Shown: in pieces, positions 1 to 44,677 of the stretch
How the letters are laid out: each line of letters begins with the position of its first letter
How positions within the stretch are numbered: the first letter of the stretch is position 1
Source of the DNA: Chloroflexota bacterium
GTDB lineage: Bacteria; Chloroflexota; Dormibacteria; CF-121
Assembly: GCA_005881715.1 (NCBI GenBank)
Contig: VBEE01000036.1
Coordinates: forward strand, 5,961-55,524
Direction of reading: 5' to 3'
Length of the DNA: 49,564 nucleotides
The notes under the pieces: generated by a model
Seen by the model: the letters and a program-made list of their open reading frames with translations, nothing else
Told to the model about the DNA's origin: nothing
The model's database searches: none
Program-made: the position numbers and the translations under genes

Positions 1-3000
1 CGACGGTCGCCGGGATGCCGGCCTCCTGCAGCAGGCGCGCGGTTCCATCGGTCGCGTAGAGCGTCAGGCCGAGCCCATGGAGCCCGCGCAAGATTGGCAG
101 CGCTTCCGATTTGTCGGCGTCGGCAATCGAGCAGAGAGCGGCCCCATCGGGCGGCAGCTCCTGCATGGTCGAAAGGAACGCCTTGTACTGCGCCGTCGCC
201 AGGTCTTGCGCGATTCCCATCGCCTCCCCGGTCGACTTCATCTCCGGACCGAGGACGGCGTCAACCGCGGGCAGCTTCGCCATCGAGAAGACGGGCGCTT
301 TTACCGCGAACAGGGGTCGGTTGGGCAGAAGACCGCTGGGAAATCCCTGCTCGGCCAACGAATGGCCGAGCGCCGCATTGGTGGCCAGCGTCACCATCGG
401 CACGCCGGTCACCTTGCTGAGGAACGGCACCGTGCGGCTGGCCCGGGGGTTCACTTCGAGCACGTAAGGAATTCCTTCCTGAAGAACAAATTGGATGTTG
501 ATCAGTCCCACCGCCTTGACCAGTCGGGCGATGAGCTTGGTGGCCTCGACCACCCGCTGCGTCTCTTCGGAGCTCAAGGTAATCGGTGGGTAAACTGCGA
601 ACGAGTCTCCGGAATGGACGCCGGCGCGCTCGATGTGCTCCAGGATGCCGGGAATCAGCACCGCGTCGCCGTCGCAGACGGCATCGACGTCGAGCTCGCG
701 GCCCAACAAGTATTTATCGATCAAGATCGGGCCGCGAACGCCAAACGCGAGGGCAGCGTCGACGTAGCGACGCAGATCTTCAGCCGAATGGACGATCTCC
801 ATGCCGCGACCGCCCAGGACGTACGACGGCCGCACCAGCACGGGATATCCGACCCGGCGCGCGATCGTCAGGGCGGCGTCGGCGCTAGTGGCCGAGCCGC
901 CCGGAGACTGCGGGATCCCGTTGTCGCGTAGCAGCGCCTCGCAGCGGCGCCGGTCCTCAGCGAGGTCGATCGTATCGACCGACGATCCCAGGATGCGCAC
1001 ACCGCCTGCGGCCAGCGCATCCGCCAGGTTCAGCCCGGTTTGACCGCCGAACTGGACCACCACGCCGAGCGCCGGATCTCGTTGCAGGACGTTGCGGACC
1101 CCCTCGAGATCGAGGGGCTCGAAGTAGAGCCGGGTCGACGCGTCGAAATCGGTACTGACCGTCTCGGGATTGCTATTGATGAGCACGCTGTCGAAGCCGG
1201 CGGCTTGCAACGCCGCCGAGGCGTGCACGCTGCAGTAGTCGAACTCGATGCCCTGGCCGATCCGGATCGGCCCGGAACCGATCACGGCAACCGCGGTGTT
1301 TCCGCTCCGGATGATTTCGTCCTCATCTTCGTAGGTCGCGTAGTAATAGGGCGTGACGGCTTCGAACTCAGCGGCGCAGGTATCAACCTGGCGGAAGGTC
1401 GGCTCGATCACCGGCACCGGGAAGCGACCGCCGCTCAGTTCGGCGATCCGGGCATCGTCAAAGCCACAGCGCTTGGCGCGGAGGACGAGCTCGCTCGGAA
1501 GCCCCCACCCTGTCCCTCCCCCGCCGGCGGGGAAGGGGATTTGCGATAGCTCGGCCTCCAGCCCGGTGATAGACGCGAGCCGGTCGACAAACCACGGCGC
1601 GTAGCCGGTCGCGGCGCAGATCTCGCCCTCTGACGCACCATCGCGCAGGGACTGGAGGACGGCCATCAAACGGCGGTCATTCGGCTGATGCAGGAGGTCC
1701 GGGCGACCGCGAAGTTGCGCGGCGTCGGGGAGCCGCTGCTCGAGCGCGCGCAGGGCCTTGTTGAGGGCGGCCTCGAAGGTGCGCTCGATGGCCATCACCT
1801 CGCCGGTCGATTTCATCTGGGTGCCGAGCGTCCGGTCGCCGGCCGGAAACTTGTCGAAGGGCCAGCGGGGAATCTTGACCACGCAGTAGTCCAGGGCCGG
1901 TTCGAAGGCGGCGGTGGTCTTTCCCGTCACCGCGTTGGGGATCTCATGGAGCAGGCGGCCGGCAGCGATCTTGGCAGCCACCCGGGCGATTGGATAGCCG
2001 GTCGCCTTGGAGGCCAGCGCCGATGACCGGCTGACTCGCGGATTGACCTCGATGACGTAGTACTGATCGGAAGCGGGGTCGAGCGCGAACTGCACATTGC
2101 AGCCACCCTCGATGCGAAGCGCGCGGATGATCCGCAGGGCAGCCGAGCGCAACATCTGATACTGCCGGTCCGAGAGCGTCTGGCTGGGCGCGACCACGAT
2201 GCTGTCGCCTGTGTGGACGCCCATCGCGTCGATGTTCTCCATGTTGCAGACGGCAATGCAGGTATCGTTGGCGTCCCGCATCACTTCGTATTCGATTTCT
2301 TTCCAGCCGACCAGGGCGCGCTCGATCAGCACCTGCCGAATCGGGCTGGCGGCGAGCCCTTCGCGAACCACGGCCTCGAGCTCAAGCGGACTCCCCGCCA
2401 TGCCACCACCGGTGCCGCCCAGGGTGTAGGCAGGACGAACAACCAGTGGAAAGCCGATGGTGGCGCCGAACTCCTGGGCCGCGTCGACGGTGTTGACCGT
2501 CCGGCTGTCCGGCGCCGGCTCGCCGGTTCGGAGCAGGACGTTTTTGAACGCCTCCCGGTCTTCCGCTTCTCTGATGGCCGCCAGCGGTGTGCCGAGCACC
2601 CGGACCTGGCAGCGCTCCAGCACCCCGGCGTCGGCAAGGGCGACCGCCAGGTTGAGCCCGGTCTGCCCACCGAGGGTGGCCAGCAGGCCGTCGGGCCGCT
2701 CGCGCTCGATGATGGCCGTCACCGCTTCGATCGTGAGCGGCTCGATGTACACCCGGTCGGCTACGCCCTCGTCGGTCATGATCGTGGCCGGGTTCGAGTT
2801 GACCAGCACGGTGCGCACCCCCTCCTCGCGGAGGGCCTTGCAGGCCTGCGTCCCGGCATAGTCGAACTCGGCGGCCTGGCCGATCACGATCGGTCCGGAG
2901 CCGATCACCAGCACCGTGTTCGGGCGCGGGGGCCGCGAAAGAATCTGAGCGATCGGCGCCGGCCGACCCGCGACCAGGTCGAGGAATTCGTCGAAGATCA

Positions 3001-4078
3001 CCTGGTTGTCCTGCGGGCCTGGCCCGCCTTCGGGATGAAACTGGACCGAGCGGACCGGCAGGCGCGCGTGGATGAGTCCCTCGACGGATCCATCGTGCAG
3101 ATTCCGATGACTGACCACGAATCCGCTATCCCGCGGCAGGCTGTCGCCGTCGACCTGAAATTCGTGGTTCTGGGAGGTGATGGTCACCCGACCGGTGCGC
3201 AGGTCCATAACCGGGTGGTTCCCACCGTGGTGGCCGAACGGGAGACGCGAGGTGCGGGCCCCCGCTGCCTGGCCGATCAGCTGATGCCCAAGACAGATGC
3301 CGAGCACGGGCAGGCGCTGCATGAGCGCCCGGGTCATCGCCACCGCCGACTGCAGTTGTGCCGGATCACCGGGTCCATTCGATAGCACGACAGCGTCCGG
3401 CTTGTGCTCGAGGATGGCCTGCAGGTCGCTATCGTGCGGCAGCACCTCGACCTCGACCCCCCGGGTGCGCAGTGATCGCAGGGTGTTGCGTTTGACACCG
3501 TAATCGACCACCACCACGCGAAGCCCCGGCCACTGACGAAGCGGCCGACCGAGCAACGCAGGGTCGAGGCGCTCGACCACGTCGGTGAACCCTTCGGACA
3601 CCTGGCGCACCAGGTCCTGTTCCTCGAGCGCTGGCACCCGCTGGACCCGTTCCCGGAGGGATGTGAGGTCCTGACGCGGTCCGATGATCGCGCGTTGAGC
3701 CCCAGTTGCTCGGAGGTGCCGCGCCAGCCGGCGCGTGTCGCAACCCGTCAGGATCGGGATTCCGAACCCGTCCAACCATTCGACCAGGGACTGATGGCTG
3801 CGCCAGTGTTGCTCGAAGCGGCTGAGTTGTCGTGTGATCAGCGCGCGCGCCCAGGGCCGCGCCGATTCCTGGAAGTCCACCGCGGCGCCGTAGTTGCCAA
3901 TCAAGGGATAGGTCATGACGACCATCTGGCCGGCGTACGAGGGGTCCGACAAGACCTCCTGGTATCCGGACATGCAGGTATTGATGACGACCTCGCCGCT
4001 CGCGTGCGTGGCCCGTCCGCCGCGCTCGCCAACGAGCACGAATCCGTCCTCCAGCAGGAGGACCATCGGCTCAGGCAT
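1..4078 (-). CDS. carAB: Fused carbamoyl-phosphate synthase small+large subunit (CarA-CarB); 3' end truncated by the window edge
   Basis: Manual translation from ATG 4078: [12 protein letters not shown]...[37 protein letters not shown] (CarA N-terminus), [11 protein letters not shown] (catalytic Cys), [14 protein letters not shown]. It continues without a stop through [44 protein letters not shown] (CarB start) and VDTCAAEF to the MGS-like [11 protein letters not shown] at position 1. The ORF track lists nothing in this frame, as expected for an ORF with no stop before the edge. Confidence 0.93.
1502..1538 (+). repeat. C/G-tract palindromic repeat copy 1 (inside carAB, in frame)
   Basis: CCCCCACCC TGT CCCTCCCCC GCCGGC GGGGAAGGGG; matches the other copies. 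Confidence 0.8.
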
Positions 4079-5213
4079 GCTGCATCACCCGTTCCATCAC
4101 GACCTGGCCGTGGCTCAGGGTCATCACGATGCGTCCGCGGAGCCGCCGCCCGGAAAAGGGCGTGTTTTTTCCCCGACTCTTGAAGGAGGAGCCGTCCACG
4201 GTCCACTCCACAAGGGGGTCGATCAGGATCCACTCGTCGTCGATTGCCTGTCCGATGATCTCGCGCGGTCGCTCGACACAGGCTCGATAGAGCACCCGAT
4301 CGTCGAGCCCCAACCCCATCACGACCGGCACGGCGGTCTCGAAGCCATGGAACCCGTTCGCGCCGGCGGCCTTGGCGCCCACGTCGTGCGGAGCATGGTC
4401 GGTGGCGATCGCATCGATCACGCCTTCGGCCAGCGCCTGCCGCAGCGCCTCGCGATCGTCGACCGATCGCAGCGGTGGATTGACGGCCCCCTGCGGGCCC
4501 AGGGCCGCCACGTCCCGCGCCGTCAGCGCGAGGTGGTGCGGCGTCGCCTCCGCCGTCACCAACAGCCTGTGCTGCTTCGCGGTCCGGATCAGCTCGACGC
4601 CGGCACGAGTGCTGACGTGCTGGATGTGCAAGCGGGCACCGGGGACCGCCTCCAAGGCCTCGAGTGCCTCAGTTACCGCCCGGGCTTCGGATTCGGGTCC
4701 ACTGCCAAGCCGCTCAATCTGCGCATGCATCAGTACCGGCAGCCCGGCCTCGGCCGCCGCCGTGAGCGCGCGACGCAGGATGACCTGGCTCATCAGATGG
4801 CGCCCGTCGTCGGAGAGGGCGACCGCGCCGGCCCGCTGTAGCGCCGCGGCGTCCGTGAGGGTTCGACCTTCGAGTCCCATGGTGACGGCGGCCACGAAGC
4901 TCACGCGGATCGGAAGTGCCGCCGCCCGGGCTACCAGCGCACGCAGCAGCTCGGGCCGGTCCGTGACCGGATCGGTGTTCGCCATCGCCACGATGTGGGT
5001 GAATCCCCCAAAGGCGGCGCTTGTGGCACCTGTCTGCAGCGTCTCCTTCTGCGGAAAGCCAGGATCCCGAAGGTGCGCGTGCAGGTCCAGCCAACCCGGC
5101 GAAAGGATGAGCCCGCTGGCATCGCGATCCGCCGCGCCGGCTGCGTTGATCGTGACGCCGGTCGGCAGCGAGAGCCCTGTCGGACCCAGGACACGCACGT
5201 TCTGGAGGTACAT
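4071..5213 (-). CDS. pyrC: Dihydroorotase
   Basis: [14 protein letters not shown] metal-binding motif, [32 protein letters not shown]; pyr operon context. Confidence 0.93.
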
Positions 5214-7206: not shown

Positions 7207-7210
7207 GAAA

Positions 7211-7242
7211 CCCCTCCCTGTCCCTCCCCACAAGGGGGAGGG
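7211..7242 (+). repeat. C/G-tract palindromic repeat copy 2 (intergenic)
   Basis: CCCCTCCC TGT CCCTCCCC ACAA GGGGGAGGG. Confidence 0.85.
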
Positions 7243-13794: not shown

Positions 13795-13847
13795 TACTCC
13801 TTTGGCCGCCGGGGCAGCGATCGGGCGCACCGCGTGCGCTCCGAGAG

Positions 13848-30840: not shown

Positions 30841-30846
30841 GCCGCT

Positions 30847-30852: not shown

Positions 30853-30917
30853 GGTCGCCGAATTCAACGCGAACGTGGCGTGTCACGAGTCCCCGTTCGG
30901 GCTAGAGCTCCCGCCAA

Positions 30918-31388
30918 CTACGTCGGCTTCCGGTTCGCCTCCCGTCGCTTGACCAGCTTTTCTCGGGCCCCCGGGTCGCCGAGCGCGAGGATGCCCATCG
31001 CCAGGTGACCGGCGTTGCGCGCCCCGGCATCACCGATCGCAACGGTGGCGACCGGGATGCCGGCCGGCATCTGCGCCATGGAAAGCAGGGCGTCAAGCCC
31101 ACCGAGCGCCCCCGCGGACATCGGCACGCCGATCACAGGCAGGACGCTCCATGCCGCAACCACGCCCGGCAGGTGGGCGGCCCCACCGGCGGCGGCGACC
31201 AACACCTTGATGCCTCGGCCCTCTGCCTCGGTCGCCCACTGGCGACACCCCTCGGGATCCCGGTGCGCCGAGCGAACGACCACCTCGTACGTAACCCCGT
31301 AGCCGTCGAGCACCTCGCAGCAGCGCTGTATGGTCGGCCGATCCGACTCGCTCCCCATCACGATGCCGACCAGCGGCCCGTCGCTCAC
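30918..31388 (-). CDS. purE: N5-CAIR mutase (class I PurE)
   Basis: VGIVMGS.SD, SAHR, AAHLPG, PVIGVP, G.DALLS..QMP.G.PVATV. Confidence 0.96.
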
Positions 31389-32662: not shown

Positions 32663-32666
32663 GAAC

Positions 32667-34202
32667 TTATTCCCATTCGATCGTCGACGGCGGCTTCGAA
32701 GAGATGTCGTACACCACGCGATTCACGCCTGGGACCTCGTTGACGACGCGACTCGAGATCTTCGCCAGCACTTCGTAAGGCAGCCGCGCCCAGTCGGCTG
32801 TCATGCCATCCTCGCTCTGCACGGCTCGGACCGCCACCACGTTGCCGTAGGTGCGGTAATCGCCCATCACGCCCACGCTTTGCAACGGCGTCAGGATGGC
32901 GAAGGCTTGCCAGAGCGAGCGATAGAGCCCGGCCGCTTTGATCTCGTCGATGACGATCCAGTCGGCCGCCCGTAGGGTTTCCAGCCGGTCACGCGTGACC
33001 TCGCCGATGATGCGGACCGCCAGCCCCGGACCAGGGAAGGGTTGCCGCTGCACCATGTCATCGGGAAGCCCTAACGCGGAGCCGATGGCGCGGACTTCGT
33101 CCTTGAAGAGGTAGCGAAGCGGCTCGACGAGCTGGAAGCGGAGGTCGGCAGGCAAGCCACCGACGTTGTGATGGGTTTTGATGCGGTGCGCATTGACCGT
33201 GTCATGACTCGTGCTTTCGATCACGTCCGGATAGAGGGTGCCCTGCGCCAGGAAGTCGACATTCCGCAACGTCCCGGCCTCGCGCTCGAAGACGGTGATG
33301 AACGTCGCGCCGATGCGCCGGCGCTTTTCTTCCGGGTCGATAACCCCTTGCAGGGCACCCAGGAACTGGTCGCTGGCGTCGACAGTCTTCAGGTCGATGC
33401 GCAGATGCCGCTGCATCACGTCCTCGACCCTGCGCCGCTCGTCGCGGCGGAGCAGCCCATTGTCAACCAACAAACAGGTCAGCTGACCCGGGACTGCGCG
33501 ATGCACCAGGGTTGCGCATACCGCCGAGTCGACGCCGCCGGAAAGCGCGCAGAGGACCCGCCCCTCGCCTACCTGTTCGCGAATCGCGACCGTCGCCTGC
33601 TCGATGAACGCGGCCGGCTTCCAGCTGCCGCGACAGGCCGCCACCTCATAGAGAAAGTTCCGGATGATCTCACGACCTTGCGGGGTATGAATCACCTCCG
33701 GATGGAAGGCGATGCCAAAACGCCCGGCGTCATCAGCCATCGCCGCGATCAGTGAATTGTCGGATTCGGCGAGACGCCGAAAGCCGGCCGGCGCCTCGAG
33801 GATGCTGTCGCCGTGGCTCATCCACACCGAGAGGGTCGAAGGCAGGTCCTTGAACAATCGGGAAGGCTCATCGACCCGCACGCTGGCCGGACCATACTCG
33901 CGCTTGCCGGCGCCCGCCACCCGACCACCCAGCTGGTGGGCGAGGAGCTGCATGCCATAGCAGATCCCGAGTACCGGGATGCCTGCTGTCAACACCGCTG
34001 GATCGGCAAGCGGTGCCCCGTCTCCGTACACGCTAGCCGGCCCGCCCGACAGGATGAGCGCCCGCGGGGCGCGAGCCCGGATCGTCTCCCATGGTGTCGT
34101 TCCGGGAATTAATTCGCAGTAGACGCCGGCCTCACGTACCCGGCGAGCGATCAGCTGGCTGTACTGCGAGCCGAAATCAAGCACCAGGACCAGTTCCTCC
34201 AC
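32667..34202 (-). CDS. guaA: GMP synthase (glutamine-hydrolysing)
   Basis: [58 protein letters not shown]. True start is GTG 34202 (or TTG 34211), not 34970. Confidence 0.96.
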
Positions 34203-34228
34203 CCCAACCAAGCCCTGCCCCGTAAGGG
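34202..34228 (+). repeat. Degenerate C/G-tract repeat copy 3, abutting the guaA start
   Basis: CCCCAACC AAG CCCTGCCCC GTAA GGG; eroded right arm. Confidence 0.5.
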
Positions 34229-34273
34229 AATGATGGTGTTGTGGGGCGACGGCCCCGCCGGCGCGCGCCGCGG

Positions 34274-35479
34274 CTATGTGCCCATCCCGACTTGCTGGGC
34301 CTGCTGAAAGAGCTTGCCTTCGTTCTGGATCGCCGGGGCGATCACGAGCTCGGTCTGCTGGAACTCGCGAAGCGTGCGCGCCCCGCAGACCCCCATCGCG
34401 GAGCGCAGGGCACCGACGAGGTTCTGTGTGCCATCGTCGACGCGAGCCGGGCCCAGCAGCACCTCGCGAAGCGTCCCGCGCTGGCCGACTTTGATTCGGG
34501 TGCCGCGCGGCAGGTTGGGGTCCGGCGTGGCCATGCCCCAGTGATAGCCGCCGCCTGCGGCATCGGTCGTGCCGGCGAAGATCGATCCGATCATCACGGC
34601 GTCGGCCCCGGAGGCGAAGGCCTTGGCGATGTCGCCCCCCACTCGCATCCCGCCATCCGTGATGACCTGGACACGCCGCCCGGTTTCTTGGAGGTACGTC
34701 TCGCGGGCGGCAGCCACGTCGCTGGTCGCGGTAACCTGCGGGACGCCCACACCCAGAACCCCCCGGGTCGTGCAGGCGGCCCCCGGTCCGACTCCGACCA
34801 GGATGCCGGTAATGCCGGTCTGCATCAATTCCAGCGCCGTCTCGTAGTCGACACAATTGCCGGCGATCAGTGGGATCGTCAGGCTCGCGCAGAGCTTCTC
34901 GAAGGAGAGCTGTTCGTACGAGCGCGAGATGTGGCGGGCGGTGAGCACCGTCCCTTGAACGACCAGGCAATCCGCTCCCGCCTCCTGTACCAGGTCGGAA
35001 CGCCGGCTGGCGTGGGCCGGCACCGTGGACACCGCGACCGGGACGCCGGCTCGCTTGACGGCCGAGATCCGCTCGCCGATCAGCTGTTCCCGGACCGGGG
35101 CCTGATAGACCTTCTGCAGCAAGGCATTGATGCGGTCGCGGGGAGCTTCGGCAATTTCGCGGAGGACCCCGCTGGGGTCGACATAGCGGGTCTGGAGACC
35201 GTCGAGGTTGATGACGGCCATTCCTCCCAGCCGGCCCATTTCCACCGCGAAACGGACGTCGACGACGCCGTCCATGGCGGCCGCCAGGATCGGGACGGCG
35301 AGCCGTAACGAGCCCAGCTCGAAGGCGCTGTCGACCTCCTGTGGGTTGATCGTGACCCGCCCCGGCACCAGCGCCACCTCGTCGAAGCCGTAGGCCCGAC
35401 GGGCTCGCTTGAATCGACCCAGCTCCAGCGTGTCGCCGGCCACGATGGCCGATGGCTTGACGGGCGCACGCACACTCAT
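34274..35479 (-). CDS. guaB: GuaB3-family IMP dehydrogenase-related protein
   Basis: [31 protein letters not shown] (catalytic Cys), VPQVTA, DGG, HWGMA; no CBS domains. Confidence 0.9.
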
Positions 35480-35550
35480 CGCCGTCGACCTCGAAACCGT
35501 GTCGAGCTCAAAAGGTATGCGTGAACCTCAGTAGGGGGTGGTTTTCGGGG

Positions 35551-35556
35551 ATTATA
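35551..35556 (-). promoter_or_regulatory. -10 element (TATAAT) for guaB-guaA-purD-purE
   Basis: Perfect TATAAT about 72 nt upstream of the guaB ATG. Confidence 0.5.
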
Positions 35557-35572
35557 GCGGATGGGTTTTTCG

Positions 35573-36088
35573 ATGGATCAACAACTTTCACCGCCAGATC
35601 GGGTCAGCGCCGCGTTGAGGAGAGCCGGAGTCTCGGCACGCATCGAGCAGTTTTCTACCTCCACGCGCACCGCTCAGGAGGCGGCCGACTCGATCGGCAT
35701 CCAGGTCGGCCAGATCGTGAAATCCCTGCTCTTCCTCGCGGGCGAGCGCCCGGTCCTGTCGCTCGTGTCCGGCGTCAACCAACTCGATGTCGCACGCCTC
35801 GCTTCCCTGACCGGATCACCCATCCGAAAAGCCGACGCGAATGCGGTGCGCGACGCGACCGGTTACGCCATCGGCGGCGTTCCGCCTACCGGTTTTCCGA
35901 AGCCGATCCGGACCTTCATCGACCGCGACCTGCTGCAGTACGACGTGGTCTGGGCGGCCGCCGGCACGCCGCGCCACGTGTTCCCCATCGCGCCGCAGGA
36001 GCTGGCGCGTGTGACCGCCGGCACCGTGGTCGATCTGAAGCCCCCACCCTACCCTCCCCCAGAGGGGGAGGGAAACGATCAAGGGTAG
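35573..36088 (+). CDS. YbaK/EbsC aminoacyl-tRNA deacylase family protein
   Basis: TRTA.EAA...G....QIVKSL, V...TGYAIGGVPP, D.DLL.Y..VWAAAGTP; start 35573 or 35561. Confidence 0.9.
   Translation: MDQQLSPPDRVSAALRRAGVSARIEQFSTSTRTAQEAADSIGIQVGQIVKSLLFLAGERPVLSLVSGVNQLDVARLASLTGSPIRKADANAVRDATGYAIGGVPPTGFPKPIRTFIDRDLLQYDVVWAAAGTPRHVFPIAPQELARVTAGTVVDLKPPPYPPPEGEGNDQG
36041..36072 (+). repeat. C/G-tract palindromic repeat copy 4 (encodes the YbaK C-terminal tail)
   Basis: CCCCCACCC TA CCCTCCCCC AGA GGGGGAGGG; peptide PPPYPPPEGEG. Confidence 0.85.
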
Positions 36089-37374
36089 ATGCCGCGGATG
36101 GTCGTGGCTTGCGCGACCTTGTCGACGGCCAGCACGTAGGCCGCGGTGCGCATCATCACCTTCTTTTCCAGGCTGACCCTGAGCACGTTGTCAAACGCCC
36201 GCAACATGATCCGCTCCAGCCGATCGTTGATGTCGTGCTCATCCCAGAAAAACTCCTGCAGATCCTGGACCCACTCGAAATACGAAACAGTGACGCCACC
36301 GGCGTTGGCCAGGATATCCGGGATGACGAACACCCCCTTGTCGTAGAGGATCTGGTCGGCCTCGGGAGTGGTCGGGCCATTGGCTCCCTCGCAGACGACC
36401 TTGGCCTTGATCCGGCGGGCGTTTCCCTCGTGGATCTGGTTTTCCAGCGCGGCCGGCACCAGCACGGTGACGGGCAACTCCAGCAACTCTTCATTGGAGA
36501 TGAACTCGCAGACTTTCTGCCGCAGCCGGCCATTCAGCTCCTTCTCGCGGACGACCTCGTCGAGCTCGATGCCGCCTTCGTTGTAGCAGGCGCCGTTCGA
36601 GTCGCTGACGGCGATGACCTTGCAGCCGGACTGGGCGAGCAATTTGGCGGTGGTGTAGCCGACATTACCGACGCCCTGGACCGCGACGGTCGCGTCCTCG
36701 GGGCGGATCTTTAGATGCTTCAGCGCCGCGAGCGTGGTCAGCTGGCAGCCGCGCCCGGTCGCTTCCGGCCGGCCTTCAGAGCCGCCGATGCCAAGCGGCT
36801 TGCCGGTCACAACCGCCGGCACGGAGTGGCCGGCGTGCATGCTGATGGTATCCATCATCCAGGCCATGATCTGGGCATTCGTGTTGACATCGGGGGCGGG
36901 GATGTCCCGGTCCGGTCCGATCAAGATGCTGATCTCACTCGTGTAGCGGCGGGTCAGGTTCTCGAGCTCATTACGGCTGAGGCGCTTGGGCTCGACGATC
37001 ACCCCACCCTTGGCCCCGCCGTAGGGAATCCCGACCACGGCGCATTTCCAGGTCATCCACATGGCGAGTGCCTTGACCTCATCGATGTTGACGCCCGGGT
37101 GATAACGAATGCCGCCCTTGGCGGGCCCGCGGTCGACGTTGTGATGCACCCGAAAACCGGTGAACATCTGCACGGTGTGATCGTCCATCAATACCGGGAA
37201 GGTGACGGTCAGTTCGCGCTTGCACTCCCGTAGCACCCGGGCCATATTCGGATCGAGCCCGAGCACCTCCGCGGCGATATCGAACTGTCGCTGGGCAATC
37301 TTCCACGGATTCGAATGGTCCGGCTCTGGCTGCGCAAAGCCCCTGCGCGGCGTCGCCTCTACCTTCTGAGCCAT
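36079..37374 (-). CDS. gdhA: Glutamate dehydrogenase (Glu/Leu/Phe/Val family)
   Basis: GPAKGGIRYHP, MTWKCA...PYGGAKGG, DIPAPDV, TGKP...GGS.GR..ATGRG, QG.GNVG, EGANGP, NAGGVTVSYFEW. Confidence 0.93.
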   Translation of the reverse strand: MAQKVEATPRRGFAQPEPDHSNPWKIAQRQFDIAAEVLGLDPNMARVLRECKRELTVTFPVLMDDHTVQMFTGFRVHHNVDRGPAKGGIRYHPGVNIDEVKALAMWMTWKCAVVGIPYGGAKGGVIVEPKRLSRNELENLTRRYTSEISILIGPDRDIPAPDVNTNAQIMAWMMDTISMHAGHSVPAVVTGKPLGIGGSEGRPEATGRGCQLTTLAALKHLKIRPEDATVAVQGVGNVGYTTAKLLAQSGCKVIAVSDSNGACYNEGGIELDEVVREKELNGRLRQKVCEFISNEELLELPVTVLVPAALENQIHEGNARRIKAKVVCEGANGPTTPEADQILYDKGVFVIPDILANAGGVTVSYFEWVQDLQEFFWDEHDINDRLERIMLRAFDNVLRVSLEKKVMMRTAAYVLAVDKVAQATTIRGIYP

Positions 37375-37443
37375 GTCTCCTCCTCGTTTACGCCGGCGAT
37401 GAACGCTGACCGGCGCCGGGCACCCATTACACTACACGGCACC

Positions 37444-38169
37444 GTGACGCCGCGGATGACGGTCCTGGCAAGCGTCTCGCTTGCAACGTTTCTCGTCACC
37501 GGGCTTGCCGCCACCCAGTTTCGGAGCCAGCCGCTCGCGTCCTCCAACCGCCTCGCCCGGGACGAAGCCTTGCGCCAAAGCGTGAACCAGCTCGAGGACC
37601 AGAATCGGGCGCTGAAGGCGCGGGTTCAGGCCCTGCAGGCCGAGGTCAAGGCGGGGGAAGACGAGAGTGCCCGCCGCTCGAGCGCCGTCCAGCAAGTCAA
37701 AGCCCTGCTCGATGAACAGAAAGCGATCGCCGGGCTCACCGCCCTGCACGGACCCGGCTTGACCATCGTGCTGCGCGACGGCGTCGACCCGAACGACCCG
37801 GCGGACCGTTCGCTCGGATGGACGATCCACTACCAGGATTTGCAGGACATCGTCAGCTTGCTGTGGGCGAGCGGCGCCGAGGCGGTCGCCGTGAACGGGC
37901 AGCGCGTGGTGCCCAGCACGTCATTCCACTATGCCGGCGTCAACATTCTCATCAACAACGCCAACCGGCTCACCAGCCCCTACACCGTGACGGCCCTGGG
38001 GGATCCCTCAACTCTCGCCAATGGGGTTGGCGATCCCGACCAGCTGGCCGAGCTCAAGAGCCGTAATCGCATCTACCGGCTCGGCCTGAGTTGGCTGCGC
38101 AGTACCCGGCTGAGCGTTCCGGCCTACGATACGACCTTTCTGGTGAAGAGTGCGCAACCGCTCGGCTGA
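37444..38169 (+). CDS. DUF881-family membrane protein
   Basis: N-terminal TM, coiled coil, AGLT...GPG..I.L.D, DL..IV..LW.SGAEAVAVNGQR, PY.V.ALGDP; GTG 37444 preferred start. Confidence 0.87.
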   Translation: MTPRMTVLASVSLATFLVTGLAATQFRSQPLASSNRLARDEALRQSVNQLEDQNRALKARVQALQAEVKAGEDESARRSSAVQQVKALLDEQKAIAGLTALHGPGLTIVLRDGVDPNDPADRSLGWTIHYQDLQDIVSLLWASGAEAVAVNGQRVVPSTSFHYAGVNILINNANRLTSPYTVTALGDPSTLANGVGDPDQLAELKSRNRIYRLGLSWLRSTRLSVPAYDTTFLVKSAQPLG

Positions 38170-38833
38170 CCGGACCGCGCGTTTTCAGCGGGTCATGGTG
38201 GTCAGCCTGATCGGCCTGGCGCTTGGCTTTCTGGTCGTCGTGCAGCTTCGGTCGCAGGCCGCGGTCGCCCGCACGCTGGCGTCCCAGGACAACACCAGCG
38301 TGGCGTTGCTGATCAACGACCTGAACCGGGCCAACAATCAGCTCATCCAGCAAGCGGCGGCGCTTTCCCTGCAGGAGACGCAGCTGCGCCAGGCCCTGAC
38401 CGCCGGCGGCGCCGACGCGCAAACAATCTCGAAGGAGCTCCAGACCCTGCGGGCGGTGACGGGTGCCGTCCCAGTGCACGGCCCTGGACTGCAAATTCGG
38501 ATCATGGGGCCGATCATGGACTTTGAGTTGCAGGACTTACTCAACAGCCTCCGCGCCGCGGGTGGCGAAGCCTTCTCCCTCAATGGCAGTCGGATGATCG
38601 GCAGCACGCCGATTGCGAGCCGTGGAAACACGCTGATGATCGGCGGGCATGCCGTCAGCGCACCCCTGGTGCTGCTGGTGATCGGCGACCCCGAGCAACT
38701 GGAGCCGGCGGCGGACCTGTCTGCCAGCAGCCTCCAGACCCGGGTGCAGGTCGATATCCAGCGTAAATCCGACATCACCATCACCGAGGTCATCAGCGCT
38801 CGTCCGCTGATTTACGCGCAGCTCGGCCGGTAG
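38150..38833 (+). CDS. DUF881-family membrane protein (second paralogue)
   Basis: LGFLVVVQ.R, G..PV.GPG..I.I, L..LLN.LRAAGGEA.SLNG.R, IGDP..L; start 38150 or 38195. Confidence 0.87.
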   Translation: MRNRSADRTARFQRVMVVSLIGLALGFLVVVQLRSQAAVARTLASQDNTSVALLINDLNRANNQLIQQAAALSLQETQLRQALTAGGADAQTISKELQTLRAVTGAVPVHGPGLQIRIMGPIMDFELQDLLNSLRAAGGEAFSLNGSRMIGSTPIASRGNTLMIGGHAVSAPLVLLVIGDPEQLEPAADLSASSLQTRVQVDIQRKSDITITEVISARPLIYAQLGR

Positions 38834-38842
38834 ACTCTGTTG

Positions 38843-39907
38843 ATGGCCCGCGTCGTCGAGCTGCGCAGCGATACTTTCACGCAGCCCACCGAGTCGATGC
38901 TGAAGGCGATGGCGATCGCGGAGGTCGGTGACGATGTATGGGACGAGGACCCCACCATCCATCGCCTCCAGGAGCGAGCCGCCGAGATGGTGGGCAGCGA
39001 GGCATCGCTCTTTACCCCCAGCGGGACGATGGGCAATCTGTGCGCTCTGCTGAGCCACGCCCAGCCAGGCGACGAGGTCATCGTGGAAATCGATAGCCAT
39101 ATATTTCAGAACGAAGTCGGTGGCGCTTCCGTCGTCGGCGGGCTGCAGTTGCGCCCGCTGGACAGCCAGAACGGCCGGCTCCAGCCGGAGCAGGTAGCGC
39201 GGGTCATCCGGCAACCGGACATCCATGAGCCACGCAGCACGCTGCTCTGCCTCGAGAACACCCACAATCGCAAAGGTGGGACCTGTTTGAGCCCGGGCCA
39301 GACCGAGGCGCTCTGCGCCGTGGCTCATCAGGCGGGTTTGAAAGTTCATCTGGACGGCGCCCGGATTTTCAATGCCGCCGTCGCGCAGAGGGTCGACGTC
39401 CGCGAGCTCACCGGTCCGGTGGACTCCGTCATGTTCTGCCTCTCCAAGGGATTGAGTGCGCCGGTCGGCTCCGTGCTGGCCGGCCCGGCCGACTTCATCG
39501 AGCGGGCTCGCCGGATGCGCAAGATGGTCGGCGGCGGTATGCGCCAGGCGGGTGTTCTGGCCGCTGCGGGGCTGTGCGCGCTGAACGAGATGGTCGATCG
39601 CCTCGCGGAGGATCACGCCAATGCCAGGCGCCTGGCCGAAGGCCTGCAGGGACTGTCGGGGTTTGACGTGGACCTCTCGACGGTGGAGACGAACATGGTC
39701 TTTGGCCAGTGCCGTCCGCCCCTCACCGCCCGCCAGTTCATCGACCGCTGCCGGACGGTCGGCGTCTTGCTCGACCAGGCATCACCCGATCGATGGCGGA
39801 TGGTCACCCACCGGGGCGTCAGCGCCGATGACGTCGACTACGCGATCGAGGCCGTCCGCGGGCTGTTTTTCGCGCCGGCCACCACACCGCTTCGCGCCAC
39901 CGGCTAG
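38843..39907 (+). CDS. ltaE: Low-specificity L-threonine aldolase
   Basis: ELRSDT.T.PT..M, GDDV..EDPT, PSGTMGN, LENTHN, HLDGARIFNA, CLSKGL.APVGS, GGGMRQAG; TAGACT 6 nt before ATG 38843. Confidence 0.93.
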   Translation: MARVVELRSDTFTQPTESMLKAMAIAEVGDDVWDEDPTIHRLQERAAEMVGSEASLFTPSGTMGNLCALLSHAQPGDEVIVEIDSHIFQNEVGGASVVGGLQLRPLDSQNGRLQPEQVARVIRQPDIHEPRSTLLCLENTHNRKGGTCLSPGQTEALCAVAHQAGLKVHLDGARIFNAAVAQRVDVRELTGPVDSVMFCLSKGLSAPVGSVLAGPADFIERARRMRKMVGGGMRQAGVLAAAGLCALNEMVDRLAEDHANARRLAEGLQGLSGFDVDLSTVETNMVFGQCRPPLTARQFIDRCRTVGVLLDQASPDRWRMVTHRGVSADDVDYAIEAVRGLFFAPATTPLRATG

Positions 39908-39939
39908 CAGATCCCGACCACCGGGGCTGAGGAGATGGC

Positions 39940-41817
39940 TTAGCGAACGGGCACGCCGGTCATCGCATCGAATAGCGGACCGCCGAAGGTCGCGTCCGGT
40001 AACAGGAGCATGCTCCCAAAGGTCTGCCAGTCACCGCTCGCGTCCGTCATGATGCCGGCCGGCGCCTGTGGGGTGCCACCAAGCGCGATGGCCACCGGTC
40101 TCCCCGGCAACATCCAGCCGGACGCCACGGTTGCGAGCCCGGGATCGGTGGCACCGAAGGCGTGGACGGCGCCGGCGCTGTCGAGCGCGAGCCCGGCGTG
40201 TGATCCAGAGAATAACGCCGCATCGACCAGGGAGGCGCCGGCAGAAAGCGAGACGGAGCCCACAACCCGACCCTCCCCCGCCGCGGGAGACGGTGCCACG
40301 GCGACGGCGCCGGCCGCATCAACGGCGACGATGCTGCCATCGCCGGAGCCCAGCATCCGCACGGGCGCCTTGAGCGCGAATCGCGGTCCGGCCGTCCCGG
40401 AGCTGCTCCAGGTGGTCCCATCGGCCAGCAGCCGGAGCGGGCCGGAAGGCAGAGCCGCAACGTCGACGGCGGCCGCCACCGACGCCGGCGGCGCGTTCGA
40501 TATCCCTGCGCCTCCGCCCAATCCATGCAGCGAGGCATCGGTGCCGAGCAGGAGCGCGCCATCCGCCGATGGATGTTCCTGGCGCACGCCCATCGTTGCC
40601 GGCGTGCCATCCGGCTGAGCCGGGAGTGCGCCCAGCACCGCGTGATCCGCAGCCGTGGCCGGCATGGCGGCGCGCGCCGGGAGCGAGGCCGTCACCACGA
40701 CGGGTGGCGCGGGATTTCGGGCGGCGTCGTTGAGCGTGAGCCGAAGCCGATAGGTGACCCCTGGATCGCCGAGGAAGCGGAGCGCGCCCTGGCTTCGCCC
40801 GGCGGTGGGCTGGTCCGCCGACTGCGTGAACCACTGTCGAAACCCGGCCGATCCCGCTGCCACCTCGATCGCCATGCCCTTGACGCCGGACAGGCCGTCG
40901 TTGCCCGACCAGTGCAGACTGGGCGCCGTCGAAGCTCCGGGATCGACGCGCAGCGCCGAGGTGGGCGGTTCGACGTCATATAGATATAGGTAGGTGATGT
41001 CGGCGCTGGTGCCGGCCCGGTCGAAGACGCGAAGGTGCAGGGTGTGGGCTCCGGGGCCGGGCACGGCCGCGCTGCCACTGGTCGCCAGCGTCCGGCCGGC
41101 CGCCGCACCAGGGTCCTGGTCCCAGCGCGCGGCAAATCCAGCCAGGCCGTGTCCTCCGTCCCGGAGGCGCCAGCTCACCGGCGGCGGTGGCCCATCCATG
41201 CCGTACCAGGAGTTCCAGTGCGCCCCACCAGGAAAAGCGAGCGGCAGCAGGAAGGGCACCGGCGGGTTGCTCGTCCACAGATTGCCCAGGTCCCAACGCC
41301 AGGGATCCTTGCCCGGCCCGGTCCAGCCGTAGGGATCGACCGAGTGCCACGGCGTGAGCAGGTCGCGCACCTCGAAGTGAAGATGCGGGCCCGTGGAATT
41401 TCCCGTGCTACCGCTGAGCGCGATCAGCTGGCCTCGAGACACGTGCTGTCCCGGATACACGAAGAGTTGATTGTTGTGGAAGTAGGCGGTGCGGTCGTAG
41501 GCGTGATCGATGACGACGCCCCAACCGCCGCTGTCGCTCCACTCGCTGTAGATGACGGTGCCCTCATCGGCCGCCAGCACCGGCGTGTTCGACGGTACGG
41601 CGAAATCCGTACCCCGATGGCCGTCATAGGCGTAGCCCCGGGCGCCGTCGAAGCGGATCATCGTCCCGTCGTCTTGCCGGTCGGGGTAATGGTGGTCCGT
41701 CCACGAGGTTATGCGTGGATGCGGGTCGGCAAAAGGCAGGGTCAGGTTCCCGGCTGCCGCCGCGGACTGCGCGGAGAGCAGGGACAAGGCAATGGCAAGA
41801 GTTACCGCCCTGTGCAA
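39940..41817 (-). CDS. Secreted M23-family metallopeptidase with long C-terminal beta-rich domains
   Basis: Signal peptide ending AQSAAAA, GHRGTD (HxxxD), PVLAA.EG.V, YFH, G.TGNSTGPHLHFEV. Start estimated at TTG 41817; the ORF track gives 41973. Confidence 0.85.
   Translation of the reverse strand: MHRAVTLAIALSLLSAQSAAAAGNLTLPFADPHPRITSWTDHHYPDRQDDGTMIRFDGARGYAYDGHRGTDFAVPSNTPVLAADEGTVIYSEWSDSGGWGVVIDHAYDRTAYFHNNQLFVYPGQHVSRGQLIALSGSTGNSTGPHLHFEVRDLLTPWHSVDPYGWTGPGKDPWRWDLGNLWTSNPPVPFLLPLAFPGGAHWNSWYGMDGPPPPVSWRLRDGGHGLAGFAARWDQDPGAAAGRTLATSGSAAVPGPGAHTLHLRVFDRAGTSADITYLYLYDVEPPTSALRVDPGASTAPSLHWSGNDGLSGVKGMAIEVAAGSAGFRQWFTQSADQPTAGRSQGALRFLGDPGVTYRLRLTLNDAARNPAPPVVVTASLPARAAMPATAADHAVLGALPAQPDGTPATMGVRQEHPSADGALLLGTDASLHGLGGGAGISNAPPASVAAAVDVAALPSGPLRLLADGTTWSSSGTAGPRFALKAPVRMLGSGDGSIVAVDAAGAVAVAPSPAAGEGRVVGSVSLSAGASLVDAALFSGSHAGLALDSAGAVHAFGATDPGLATVASGWMLPGRPVAIALGGTPQAPAGIMTDASGDWQTFGSMLLLPDATFGGPLFDAMTGVPVR
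40259..40293 (+). repeat. C/G-tract repeat copy 5 (in frame inside the M23 peptidase)
   Basis: CCCACAACCC GA CCCTCCCCC GCCGC GGGAGACGG; peptide PSPAAGEGRVVG. Confidence 0.65.
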
Positions 41818-42035
41818 CCTTAAGAACCGCGTAACAACGGGGCCGTAACGCGACCTGAAAGAAAGCCGCAACAGGCCCGCGACGGCACCGTCACGATGCA
41901 GGCCCCCTCTTGGGGTCGCTACAGGCTTTCCCATAGGCTGGCGTTGAATTGCGAAGGAGTCCAAGGATCTCACCTGTTTTGCCGCGTGTCCCGTGGCCGC
42001 GCAGCGGCGATTCTAACCGCTCAGGAAAACAAGGA

Positions 42036-42545
42036 ATGACGCAACGGCACTCACGTTCACGCGGGAAACGGGCCCAGGCGCTGGCCGAGATGGCCGTGAT
42101 GGTGCCCTTCCTCGTCATCGGAATGATGGGGATGCTCGACCTCGGCCGGGCCTTCTACTACCAGATTGCCATCACGAACGCCGTGCGGGAGGGCGCCCGC
42201 TATGCCGCAGAGCCCTACTACTTCGGGCTCAACCCGAGTTGCGCCAACGTCCCGCCGCCCTCGACACCGGGCGCCAATTGCGTGACCGCCGGCGACACCA
42301 CCATCCAGGACCGAGTCAACCGCGAGCTCACCGGGACGGGCTTCTTGATCCCGACAGCCGACATCCTCGTGACGCCGGATCAGAGCCAGCGGGTTACCGA
42401 TTTCACCAGCCTCACGCCGACATCGCAGTACCCGATCAAGGTCACGGCCAGCTTCCGGTTCAACTTCATCACGCCGATCATCGGCAGCCTGATCGGGAAC
42501 CCACTGACGATCAGTTCCAGCGCAGTCTTCAGGGCGGAGTACTGA
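42036..42545 (+). CDS. tadE: TadE-like pseudopilin
   Basis: Basic leader, RA|QALAEMA..VP.L, D.GR......TNAVREGARYA; SD AAGGA before ATG 42036. Confidence 0.88.
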   Translation: MTQRHSRSRGKRAQALAEMAVMVPFLVIGMMGMLDLGRAFYYQIAITNAVREGARYAAEPYYFGLNPSCANVPPPSTPGANCVTAGDTTIQDRVNRELTGTGFLIPTADILVTPDQSQRVTDFTSLTPTSQYPIKVTASFRFNFITPIIGSLIGNPLTISSSAVFRAEY

Positions 42546-43021
42546 TGCGCAAGGGCCTGTTGCGCCGTCACCGCGGCCAGTCGATGGTCGAGTTTGCCGT
42601 GCTCTCGCCGGTGTTCTTCCTGCTGCTGCTCGGCACCATCGACCTGGGACGCGCGGTTTACATCTATAACACCATCTCCGATGCCGCCCGCGAGGGTACT
42701 CGGGCCGCCATCCCCTTCGATTCGCCGCTGCCGACGAATGCGGCGGTGGTCGCGGCCGTCCAGAGCAAACTTGGCGGCGGTTTCACCCTTGCAGTCGACA
42801 ACGCGTGCGCCGGGCAGCCAGCGGGCGGGAGCTGTCCGACCGTTCCAACCGTCCCGAACACAGGCTTCATCTGGTACGGCCCGGGCATTGGAACGCCGGG
42901 CCGGGGCGAGGTCACGGTCAAGATCTCGTTTCTCTTCCAGCCGTGGATCCCGGTGGTGCGGGATGCGGCCGGCAACGGCGTTGTGATCTCGGCGCAATCC
43001 ACGATGGTGACGGAGTATTGA
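42545..43021 (+). CDS. tadE: TadE-like pseudopilin
   Basis: RG|QSMVEFA...P....LL.G.IDLGR......DAAREG.R.A; coupled TGATG start. Confidence 0.9.
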   Translation: MRKGLLRRHRGQSMVEFAVLSPVFFLLLLGTIDLGRAVYIYNTISDAAREGTRAAIPFDSPLPTNAAVVAAVQSKLGGGFTLAVDNACAGQPAGGSCPTVPTVPNTGFIWYGPGIGTPGRGEVTVKISFLFQPWIPVVRDAAGNGVVISAQSTMVTEY

Positions 43022-43025
43022 ACAA

Positions 43026-44639
43026 ATGCTGATCAAGCTACGCAAAGGTAAGCGCGCCCAGAGCCTGGTGATCGTGGCGCTTTCGGCCACGGCGCTGTTC
43101 GGGATCATCGCCCTGGGACTGGACGCCGGCCGGCTGTACTTCCAGCGTCGCGATGTGCAGAACGCCGCGGATGCCGGCGCGCTTGCCGGAGCGCAGGAAC
43201 TGCTGCCAACCGGCAGCAACACCACGGTCACGAGCGCGATGATTGATTCCGCCGGATGCCAGGCATCCGTGTATGCGCTGCTGGGCCTGCTGGACACGCC
43301 GCGCGACGGCAGCGGCACCAACTGCAATCCGGCCCCGGGCGCCTACCATCCCAACAGCTTCGGCGGTGGGATCAGCGAGCCGGCTGACCACATCTCGGCC
43401 ACCGTCCAGGTCTGGACGCCCAGCCGCGGCAACAGCAACGAGATCCACGTGCGGGTGACCTACAACGTGCCGCTGACGTTTGCCGCGGTGCTGGGCTTCA
43501 CCACCTCGGCCGTGGTTGCCGACGCCTATGCCCACGGCGGCTTCTACAACAAGACCTACACCGTCTTCGGCTTCGACGCGGGCGGTAATGGCAACGCCGT
43601 CAACTTCGACCAGAACGGCAATGCCCAGATCGACGACGGCTTCAACGGCAGCGACATCTGCCAGCCCAGCCCGGACCAGGGCCGGCTGGTGTCCAACTCG
43701 AAGTGGCACGCCCCCAACCCGGGTGGGGACTGGATGAACCTCAACGGGCAGTTCTACTATTCGCAAGCGTCAGACACACACGCGCTGATCGAGTACTGGT
43801 ACAAGAGCGTGGGGACATCCCAGCCGATCGAGGGGTCGCCCAACTACGAGCCGCCGCTGAAGCCCGGCTTTGCACTCCCTCCAACAACGACTACCTACAA
43901 CGGGAAAACCGTTCACGTCTACTACCCGGGAACCTACATCAACCCGATCAACGCCACGAACAACAACGACTACTACCGCTTCATGAACGGGATCTACTAC
44001 TTCCAGGACGTCGATTTCAACATCACCGGCGGCATCGTCTCCAACACCTCGGATGGCGTACCACACTACGGCCCCTATGGCGGCGTGTCGGACCTGCCGG
44101 CGGCTGCCGACAGGACCAACGGGGTGACCTTCGTCTTCGACGGCAATGCGAAGTTCACCGCCAGCACCAGTGGCAACACCTCGCCGAGCGTCTTCTTTGC
44201 GGCGCCGAGCTTCATCTCCAGTGGCACCGACAGCATCGCCTTCTTCATCAAGGCGACGGATACGATCAGCGGCCCGAACGGATCGCCCTGGGACGAGGAG
44301 ATCGACGGCACCAAGGGGACGGCGGGCGGCTATCCATTCCAGGTCTGGGGCTCGGTCTTCAATGCCGACAACAACGGCTCGCATGGGACGGTCGTCACGC
44401 TCCGGGCGGTCAGTGCCTCCAACGGCACAAACCGCTACGCGGTAACGGGTGAGGTCGTCTCGCCCCAGGTCGACCTCGATGGCGGCAACATGGTGAGCGG
44501 ACCCTACACACCGAACGCGCCGGCCCCCCCGCCCGGCTGTCGGGCAAGTGACTATCACCAGAGCCCGGCCGGGTTAATGGTGCAGTTCAACGCCCACTAC
44601 GTGCCCCACTGGCGGGGCCTCGCCTACCTGGTCAGGTAG
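43026..44639 (+). CDS. tadG: TadG-like pilus-associated protein with a large Asn/Gly/Tyr-rich adhesin-like region
   Basis: RA|QSLVIVAL, ALGLD.GR......QNAADAGALAGA..L N-terminal Tad motif. Confidence 0.82.
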   Translation: MLIKLRKGKRAQSLVIVALSATALFGIIALGLDAGRLYFQRRDVQNAADAGALAGAQELLPTGSNTTVTSAMIDSAGCQASVYALLGLLDTPRDGSGTNCNPAPGAYHPNSFGGGISEPADHISATVQVWTPSRGNSNEIHVRVTYNVPLTFAAVLGFTTSAVVADAYAHGGFYNKTYTVFGFDAGGNGNAVNFDQNGNAQIDDGFNGSDICQPSPDQGRLVSNSKWHAPNPGGDWMNLNGQFYYSQASDTHALIEYWYKSVGTSQPIEGSPNYEPPLKPGFALPPTTTTYNGKTVHVYYPGTYINPINATNNNDYYRFMNGIYYFQDVDFNITGGIVSNTSDGVPHYGPYGGVSDLPAAADRTNGVTFVFDGNAKFTASTSGNTSPSVFFAAPSFISSGTDSIAFFIKATDTISGPNGSPWDEEIDGTKGTAGGYPFQVWGSVFNADNNGSHGTVVTLRAVSASNGTNRYAVTGEVVSPQVDLDGGNMVSGPYTPNAPAPPPGCRASDYHQSPAGLMVQFNAHYVPHWRGLAYLVR

Positions 44640-44644
44640 GGCGA

Positions 44645-44677
44645 CCCCCACCCCGACCTTCCCTAGCAAGGGGGGAG
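44645..44677 (+). repeat. C/G-tract repeat copy 6 (intergenic)
   Basis: CCCCCACCCC GA CCTTCCC TAGCAA GGGGGGAG. Confidence 0.75.

Follow-up and report, generated by a model that had tools for sequence, protein, structure and literature searches.

Why does one short C/G-rich palindrome recur along a single strand of a chromosome whose genes point both ways, and what has put it there? The question is raised by a 49,564-nt stretch of a Chloroflexota genome (contig VBEE01000036.1, positions 5,961 to 55,524; hereafter the window, meaning this whole stretch), in which an initial annotation listed six copies of a triplex-capable repeat and read them as a small mobile or self-propagating element with a replication-strand bias. 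The reading favored here, with a probability of roughly 0.6, is that the copies belong to a genus-wide family of short, non-autonomous selfish repeats of the BoxC/PIT/TM type, which has a polar orientation and for which a DUF559 nuclease is the putative driver. The observation behind the initial annotation was partly confirmed and its interpretation is supported: copies were found throughout the genome, orthologous sites were found empty in relatives, and the local orientation of the copies is non-random.

The genome of the window, G000, represents a high-GC soil lineage, comprises 2.42 Mb in 125 contigs, and is 89% complete; its open reading frames (ORFs) were called with a simple codon-bias gene caller. 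It was compared with sister species and relatives in the same genus (G001, G003, G004, G005, G006, G009, G013, G015, and others), of which G015 is the closest. The genus genomes are fragmented metagenome-assembled genomes, and the DUF559 units described below lie on short contigs.

Architecture of the repeat and its copies in the window

The repeat unit consists of CCCCCACCC, a linker of 2 to 3 nt, CCCTCCCCC, a loop of 3 to 6 nt, and GGGGGAGGG, and the segment common to the copies is only ∼33 to 37 nt long (31 to 38 nt across the family). On the G-rich strand, a hairpin (CCCTCCCCC-loop-GGGGGAGGG) precedes a third arm, GGGTGGGGG, that mirrors the purine arm and sets a T against the one A-T pair. 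This mirror arrangement is exactly what an antiparallel purine-motif intrastrand triplex requires. The third arm that mirrors GGGGGAGGG is GGGTGGGGG in 48 of the 86 copies collected from G000 and GGGAGGGGG in 5 of them, and it is separated from the hairpin by a second loop of 2 to 3 nt (CGA in 20 copies, TG in 17, TGA in 10, and others). The four G-runs that had been seen on the minus strand (GGGGGAGGG-ACA-GGGTGGGGG) are present. Folded as single-stranded DNA, the copies at 36041 and 7211 form 9-bp hairpins of approximately −11 kcal/mol (z scores of −3.3 and −2.2, respectively); the copy in carB (1502) has a mismatched stem and is indistinguishable from shuffled sequences. Rfam at gathering thresholds gave no match at the repeat sites, its sole match in the window being a flavin mononucleotide (FMN) riboswitch.

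A symmetric form, in which one hairpin is flanked by two third arms (in the order C-arm, hairpin, G-arm), was observed at positions 408 to 452 of contig G000:C42 and also in unrelated phyla (loci L028, L107, and L114). It could represent either an overlap of two copies in opposite orientation or a junction form.

A strict three-segment pattern matches exactly three sites in the window (1502, 7211, and 36041) and none in 100 dinucleotide-preserving shuffles. The listed sites were scored with a profile built from the 86 copies of G000, which gave the following assignments (E-values from the profile unless another source is named).

2..4078, − strand: fused carbamoyl-phosphate synthase gene carA-carB (∼1461 aa, extending beyond the window start), host of the copy at 1502
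1502..1540, + strand: intact copy in the fused carA-carB gene (E = 9e-9); the host gene, on the − strand, reads the G-rich strand of the copy in frame
7210..7242, + strand: intact intergenic copy between a glutaredoxin-like gene and the next + strand gene (E = 1.1e-7), with a 9-bp hairpin
34202..34236, + strand: no copy; start and ribosome-binding region of guaA (− strand), beside an IMPDH-like gene (profile, and Pfam domains of the flanking ORFs)
35561..36088, + strand: YbaK/ProX-like aminoacyl-tRNA editing gene (PF04073, 2.5e-24), host of the copy at 36041
36041..36075, + strand: intact copy in the last codons of the YbaK-like tRNA-editing gene (E = 6e-10)
40256..40293, + strand: decayed in-frame copy, referred to as 40259, inside an M23-peptidase gene on the − strand (E = 0.005)
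44645..44679, + strand: decayed copy right after the stop codon of a Tad-like gene on the + strand (E = 5.6e-6)

Five of the six listed copies thus stand, three of them intact and two decayed. The site at 34202 was ruled out as a copy; it is unmatched by the profile even at E ≤ 10. The five real copies all lie on the + strand although their host genes face both ways (carA-carB and the M23 peptidase on the − strand, the YbaK-like and Tad-like genes on the + strand), as had been noticed. The copy at 36041 is apparently young. It has rewritten the C terminus of the YbaK-like protein, which ends in ...VDLKPPPYPPPEGEGNDQG instead of ...VDLKRG, and its borders, at 36040/36041 and 36072 to 36075, were read from the loose ends of metagenome reads and contigs. 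The copy at 44645 matches its subfamily consensus at 31 of 35 letters (manual reading) and has lost the hairpin according to the folding computation; that at 40259 is an old one. The long carA-carB open frame (1409 to 1561 aa) is also found in 11 relatives in the genus.

Family size and turnover at orthologous sites

The genome-wide motif search that the initial annotation had proposed revealed a family well beyond the six sites. A tolerant pattern gave 87 matches in G000, one of which is an overlap artifact, leaving 86 copies, 44 on the + strand and 42 on the − strand of contigs whose orientation is arbitrary. Exact matches number 10 to 102 per genome in all 18 genus genomes sampled, with none for a reversed-pattern control, and in other genera of the class they occur in only 1 of 12 genomes (five matches). 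In a scan of one genome per species, the exact three-block motif was found at no fewer than 122 loci with unrelated flanks. Among the matches listed are Alpha-, Beta-, Gamma-, and Deltaproteobacteria, Bacteroidota, Planctomycetota, Chloroflexota, Nitrospirota, Armatimonadota, and a candidate-phylum genome.

Orthologous sites differ in their repeat content even between close relatives, and the empty-site orthologues that had been sought were found. At 36041, a clean empty site is present in G015 and G005, in DNA that is 86 to 90% identical and in which two convergent genes overlap at their stop codons. The G005 and G015 counterparts of the spacer at 7211 are non-homologous and carry no repeat. 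Of the 11 genus genomes aligned at carB, 3 are filled; the loop that holds the G000 copy, a net insertion of 11 aa relative to G015, also holds one in G004 and G013, and the carB genes of G006 and G003 contain possible one-arm remnants. The extra segment of 21 to 33 nt at 40259 is common to G000 and G015 and missing in G005 and G013. Within one loop of argG, G000 has one copy, G013 has three in tandem, and G015, G006, and G005 have none; cysS has two tandem copies in G000, one each in G015 and G005, one inverted copy in G013, and none in G004 and G006. Such gains, losses, tandem changes, inversion, and partial deletions at aligned sites point to a repeat that is unstable or mobile. That the same loops are used again and again may be a matter of target choice, or of survival only where the protein tolerates an insert.

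No read or contig joint that skips a repeat was found for window positions 30000 to 49564 in four soil-metagenome runs, where the raw-read depth was below 1.5× and the Logan contigs omit rare variants; at that depth and with that loss, the absence of such joints allows no inference.

A DUF559 gene bracketed by the repeat in sister species

The possibility had been raised that an endonuclease or HUH-transposase gene is flanked by the repeat. For HUH enzymes the outcome is negative, as a PF01797 search found no Y1/HUH transposase in G000. For a nuclease it is positive, in sister species only. Genes of the DUF559 family (PF04480) were found in 7 of 30 genus genomes, a control genome of E. coli giving no hit, and all four genus loci with E ≤ 1e-38 have an exact copy of the repeat within ∼50 nt of the gene. 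At three of these (G008:C74, G033:C10, and G012:C231, corresponding to loci L135, L136, and L137) the gene is flanked on both sides by inverted copies whose third arms point toward it. The fourth locus runs into a contig end, and its one visible side carries four copies in tandem. In G002, two DUF559 loci have another type of hairpin on both sides; beside partial DUF559 hits, either no hairpin or a single one is present. The bracketed ORF is 132 aa long and extends into the downstream repeat. Its nearest solved chain is 3HRL, an uncharacterized "endonuclease-like protein" (E = 1.6e-26), and the protein is predicted to have a Vsr-like PD-(D/E)XK nuclease fold.

The locus shared by G012 and G008 was followed through the other species. 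It is empty in G003, in G015, and, by coordinates, in G011; G038 and G017 carry a decayed solo hairpin. Across species the locus thus ranges from empty, through a decayed solo hairpin, to the full DUF559 unit. Unrelated genes occupy it in G009 and G001, where the extra DNA (881 and 1304 nt) was considered as a further unit and rejected, since it encodes unrelated small membrane proteins. Its counterpart in G000 was not found, the search returning only a 77% paralogue. The spacer concerned, downstream of a livF-like ABC ATPase gene (positions 568 to 1080 of L137, with orthologues L301 to L312), is a variable hot spot across the genus.

In a sample of the phylum, DUF559 was detected at E ≤ 1e-15 in 60 of 201 genomes (this tally and the genus tally count two unpublished genomes, G036 and G076, on which no specific claim depends). 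Among 30 phylum loci that were fetched, ∼24 have a TM-type hairpin within 160 nt of the gene and ∼14 have one on both sides. The repeat itself varies with the lineage (CCCTCTCCC/GGGTGAGGG, CCCTCCCCC/GGGTGGGGG, TCCCCCTTT/AGGGGGATT, and others), and its third arm follows the antiparallel purine-motif rule (G.G-C, T.A-T, or A.A-T) against the purine arm of the hairpin. The fit to this rule was 0.624 with each repeat's own arm, a value reached in 0 of 200 permutations, versus 0.574 ± 0.011 with arms swapped between loci, and in 198 of 233 cases an A position is opposed by A or T.

Literature searches, in which papers on DUF559 were judged by title, retrieved none on a link between DUF559 and repeats, and the terms do not occur in the available part of PMC4666352. 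In the accessible portion of one paper, DUF559 genes are enriched among predicted invertible targets, and in that of another DUF559 is grouped with Vsr and a group-I-intron homing endonuclease.

Orientation of the copies and replication

The strand uniformity seen in the window extends to the genome. On the contigs of G000, 31 of 34 pairs of neighboring copies are concordant in orientation, over distances of up to 29 kb (binomial P = 8e-7); counted by hand, the concordant pairs are 27 of 31 in G009, 31 of 46 in G006, and, in G003, 29 of 38. Runs of uniform orientation reach 100 to 190 kb. Since neighboring copies differ in subfamily (manual reading), local copying fails to explain the concordance, which is solid.

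Contigs carrying dnaA were used to place this orientation on the chromosome (13 genus genomes plus G000, 14 in all). In counts that contain several copies per contig and possibly inherited copies, 10 copies on the + strand and 3 on the − strand lie to the left of dnaA, and 0 and 6, respectively, to its right (Fisher P = 0.003). One polarity is followed by 16 of the 19 copies, and all seven contig sides with copies have the same majority. With oriC placed, by assumption, at dnaA, the leading strand carries the G-rich form; this strand is identical in sequence to the lagging-strand template. By synteny with G006:C29, the window lies ∼115 to 155 kb to the left of dnaA in the same orientation, and its + strand copies obey the rule. 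Gene-strand bias switches at dnaA in the 14 contigs, with 57.5% of genes on the − strand to the left and 66.4% on the + strand to the right. The GC skew on these contigs is merely −0.002 (left) and +0.002 (right), so that a skew test is without power in this lineage. Within ±10 kb of the copies in G000, GC skew, GC3 skew, and gene-strand bias are unlinked to copy orientation. On balance, we consider it somewhat probable that the polarity of the copies is linked to replication. As far as the literature searches show, the dnaA-centered polarity and the multistate orthologous loci are new observations.

Contig G000:C83 (89.9 kb, with dnaA at 51.4 kb) is free of copies along its entire length, as are 6 of the other 13 dnaA-bearing contigs. 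In these small samples, the repeat may be depleted near the origin.

Copies inside genes

Called ORFs of G000 contain 38 of the 87 pattern matches. A Pfam test was applied to the 19 host ORFs in which the copy lies at least 90 nt from either end, and in 10 of them (11 copies) Pfam domains span the copy or flank it on both sides. These hosts are aroE, a DAO/GCV_T oxidase (two copies), a Pyr_redox_3 enzyme, argG, a DUF1015 protein, tilS, dnaG, cysS, a KduI/IolB protein, and an S9 peptidase. Together with carB, this gives at least 12 in-frame intragenic copies; the other 9 tested ORFs are ambiguous (possible gene fusions or miscalled starts) and were left out of the count. The peptides that the in-gene copies encode are rich in Pro and Gly, for example PSPLAGEGRGGG or PPPYPPPEGEG.

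A related arrangement was observed at positions 26005 to 26081 of contig G000:C24, where two tandem copies lie between luciferase-like monooxygenase and UbiA prenyltransferase domains within one open frame of 712 aa. This frame is either a repeat-mediated gene fusion or the read-through of a stop-free spacer.

Relation to known repeats and mobile systems

The likeness to BoxC/PIT repeats that the initial annotation had pointed out is one of architecture. As in TMECO, PIT, and BoxC, a C-rich arm of ∼9 nt is followed, after a loop of 3 to 7 nt, by its G-rich complement and then, across a short second loop, by another G-rich arm with the capacity to form G.G-C and T.A-T triplets. Like PIT and BoxC, it is GC-rich and dispersed, with highly similar copies that vary among relatives and no known transposon attached. 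Hoyne and Maher are said to have described the E. coli PIT elements, in 2000, as intrastrand triplex motifs.

TM motifs (PIT/BoxC/TMECO) are reported from 262 proteobacterial genomes in the available part of the paper by Holder et al. (2015, PMC4666352), and the succession of features in its architecture criterion (stem, loop, stem, second loop, and second G-rich stem) is found in the G000 repeats. The exact published TMECO pattern (CCCTCNCCC N3-6 GGGNGAGGG N3 GGGNGAGGG) has no match in G000, whereas a relaxed form, with third arm GGGNGNGGG and a second loop of 2 to 3 nt, has 35. The resemblance therefore holds for the architecture and the mirror third arm and fails for the published pattern, and the family is a variant of the PIT/BoxC/TM kind rather than TMECO itself. 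The third arm is GGGTGGGGG here instead of GGGNGAGGG, and the second loop is 2 to 3 nt. In the same portion of that paper, TMECO of E. coli K-12 is always intergenic, has no strand bias, and is not linked to mobile elements; its triplex was formed in vitro by single strands and was undetected in duplex DNA or in vivo. By contrast, the family described here has in-frame copies within genes, concordant neighbors, and, in sister species, copies that bracket a DUF559 gene. The papers retrieved yielded no in-gene copies of a BoxC-type repeat, and the corresponding terms are absent from the available part of PMC4666352.

In-frame insertion into protein-coding genes is a behavior shared with the Rickettsia palindromic elements (RPEs), and the parallel drawn is one of behavior. 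RPEs are ∼100 to 150 bp long, AT-rich, and lineage restricted, whereas the repeat studied here is 31 to 38 nt long, has a mirror third arm, and is found across phyla. Ogata et al. reportedly found, in 2000, RPEs inserted in frame in housekeeping genes and tolerated in surface loops.

The closest published precedent in logic is that of the Ssn (GIY-YIG) single-strand nucleases with their NTS/SRM repeats, as presented in the accessible text of Chenal et al. (2025, PMC11893778), where a small nuclease gene is likewise paired with its own dispersed, many-copy, hairpin-type repeat. Action on single-stranded DNA, as for Ssn, would fit the strand polarity of the copies. The nuclease fold differs (Vsr-like PD-(D/E)XK as predicted for DUF559), and so does the repeat of the putative pair described here.

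With the REP/BIME-RAYT systems the family shares short GC-rich palindromic repeats beside the gene of a candidate mover enzyme; unlike in those systems, the bracketed gene encodes a nuclease and no transposase, and no Y1/HUH gene occurs in the 89% of G000 that is covered. A comparison with miniature inverted-repeat transposable elements meets the lack of a clear target-site duplication, and the only parent-like unit encodes DUF559 and no transposase.

Possible mechanism and alternative explanations

Under the favored reading of a selfish repeat family with a DUF559 driver, each repeat comprises a G/C hairpin of 9 to 11 bp (CCCTCCCCC / GGGGGAGGG) and a third arm, which reads CCCCCACCC on one strand and GGGTGGGGG on its complement. 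The small unit that encodes the 132-aa nuclease in sister species has inverted copies as its two ends. The nuclease would recognize the folded repeat and prompt its copying or its loss through host repair, and the copies of G000 would be orphans of such a unit. Copies persist between genes and at the ends of genes, and they are also retained in frame within permissive loops of housekeeping proteins, to which they add Pro/Gly-rich peptides. The G-rich, triplex-capable strand would lie on the leading strand and so correspond to the lagging-strand template, as the dnaA contigs in part indicate, and the polarity would arise from a step on single-stranded DNA at the replication fork or from orientation-dependent survival.

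Several observations weigh against this proposal. G000, at 89% completeness, has no DUF559 gene by PF04480 search; the absence of a mobilizing enzyme already seen in the window thus extends to the genome for both DUF559 and Y1/HUH transposases. The genus genomes richest in exact matches (G013 with 102, G017 with 78, and G001 with 66) have no DUF559 hit either, which means that copy number does not track the nuclease gene. A nuclease of 132 aa cannot by itself join or integrate DNA, no clear target-site duplication was found at two clean empty/filled pairs, and the homing of a DUF559 gene into pre-existing repeats fits the same data. With respect to replication, the neighbor concordance and the dnaA polarity argue for the strand bias first suspected, and the independent markers in G000 do not: contigs labeled by copy orientation show no gene-strand bias (608 versus 636 genes), GC skew reaches just +0.001 on the strand predicted to be leading, and no polarity of 6- to 8-mers rises above a label-permutation control. 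The gene-strand test falls from 58% on contigs with at least three copies to 44% on those with one, a further origin-like switch is present in G006:C5, and the composition of the dnaA counts noted above belongs here as well.

Spread and decay without a dedicated enzyme offer one alternative. The hairpin or triplex would stall replication and be propagated by template switching, slippage, or gap repair, and DUF559 would merely land in, or be retained between, fragile sites. The tandem changes, one-arm partial deletions, and in-place inversion at orthologous sites are what slippage predicts, the high-copy genomes lack DUF559, strand polarity fits a replication-dependent process, and TM motifs are tied to local instability in the available part of Holder et al. 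(PMC4666352). However, slippage fails to explain how the same 35-nt unit reaches new, unrelated sites such as 36041, and the constant arrangement of a lineage-varying repeat beside DUF559 is left without explanation. We regard this alternative as unlikely.

The position of the copies relative to genes bears on another possibility, that the repeats serve the host and are kept by selection as mRNA 3′-end stabilizers or terminators, as REP/BIME-like sites for nucleoid proteins or gyrase, or as KOPS-like signals, DUF559 being incidental. Among the 86 copies, 38 lie within 60 nt of a gene 3′ end, the family is polar along contigs, and the hairpin contains GGGGAGGG, which fits GGGNAGGG, the consensus of the FtsK-orienting KOPS of E. 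coli. However, 23 copies lie near 5′ ends and 25 lie at least 30 nt inside ORFs, including coding loops, and the sites are not conserved among close species. The orientation of copies relative to genes is mixed (24 same and 13 opposite at 3′ ends), as it is relative to host genes, which indicates that it is independent of transcription and argues against a terminator-like role. There is also no T-run after the hairpin, and the KOPS-like word, being part of the palindrome, is found identically on either strand. Neither promoter nor terminator activity was shown by PIT motifs in E. coli, according to the available part of PMC4666352. A host-serving role is accordingly rated as quite improbable.

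Movement by a transposase encoded elsewhere in the genome (RAYT/IS200-type HUH or DDE), as for REP- or MITE-like elements, would suit a short, dispersed palindrome whose orientation is linked to replication, as in the single-strand transposition of IS200/IS605-type elements, but it is very improbable given the absence of PF01797 matches in G000 (DDE transposases near the copies were not searched for), of any copy pair in unit arrangement (− then +) within 3 kb on any G000 contig (manual reading), and of a target-site duplication at the two pairs mentioned above.

Other features of the window

The FMN riboswitch (RF00050, 83 bits, E = 1.6e-17) occupies 13843 to 13974 on the − strand, upstream of the minus-strand ORF at 12763 to 13830, and is ordinary.

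Soil-metagenome contigs show a depth spike of up to ∼1300× at 48129 to 48162. It was considered as a repeat and rejected, as it is the conserved biotin/lipoyl attachment motif of a 69-aa carrier protein (PF00364), to which DNA of many organisms cross-maps. Soil metagenome runs from at least 15 studies contain 82 to 92% of the sampled words of window positions 34000 to 43999, and the organism of the window appears to be widespread in soils.

Implications

BoxC/PIT/TM repeats have been known for ∼30 years with their spread and role unexplained, and a genus of ∼30 species provides a natural experiment in which single loci range from empty to a solo repeat to a full nuclease unit, copy number and orientation vary within the same protein loop, and a chromosome-scale polarity unseen in E. 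coli appears. The recognition of the repeat by DUF559, the folded single-stranded substrate, and the frequency with which essential proteins are remodeled by repeats are thereby made testable. A wider proposition is more doubtful and is put forward tentatively: bacterial BoxC/triplex-type repeats in general might be the dispersed ends or recognition sites of DUF559 units, with the nuclease acting on the triplex-clamped hairpin while the G-rich strand is single-stranded on the lagging-strand template. If this wider reading is true, DNA would be spread by a nuclease and without a transposase, leaving a replication-polar orientation behind and able to write Pro/Gly loops into essential proteins.

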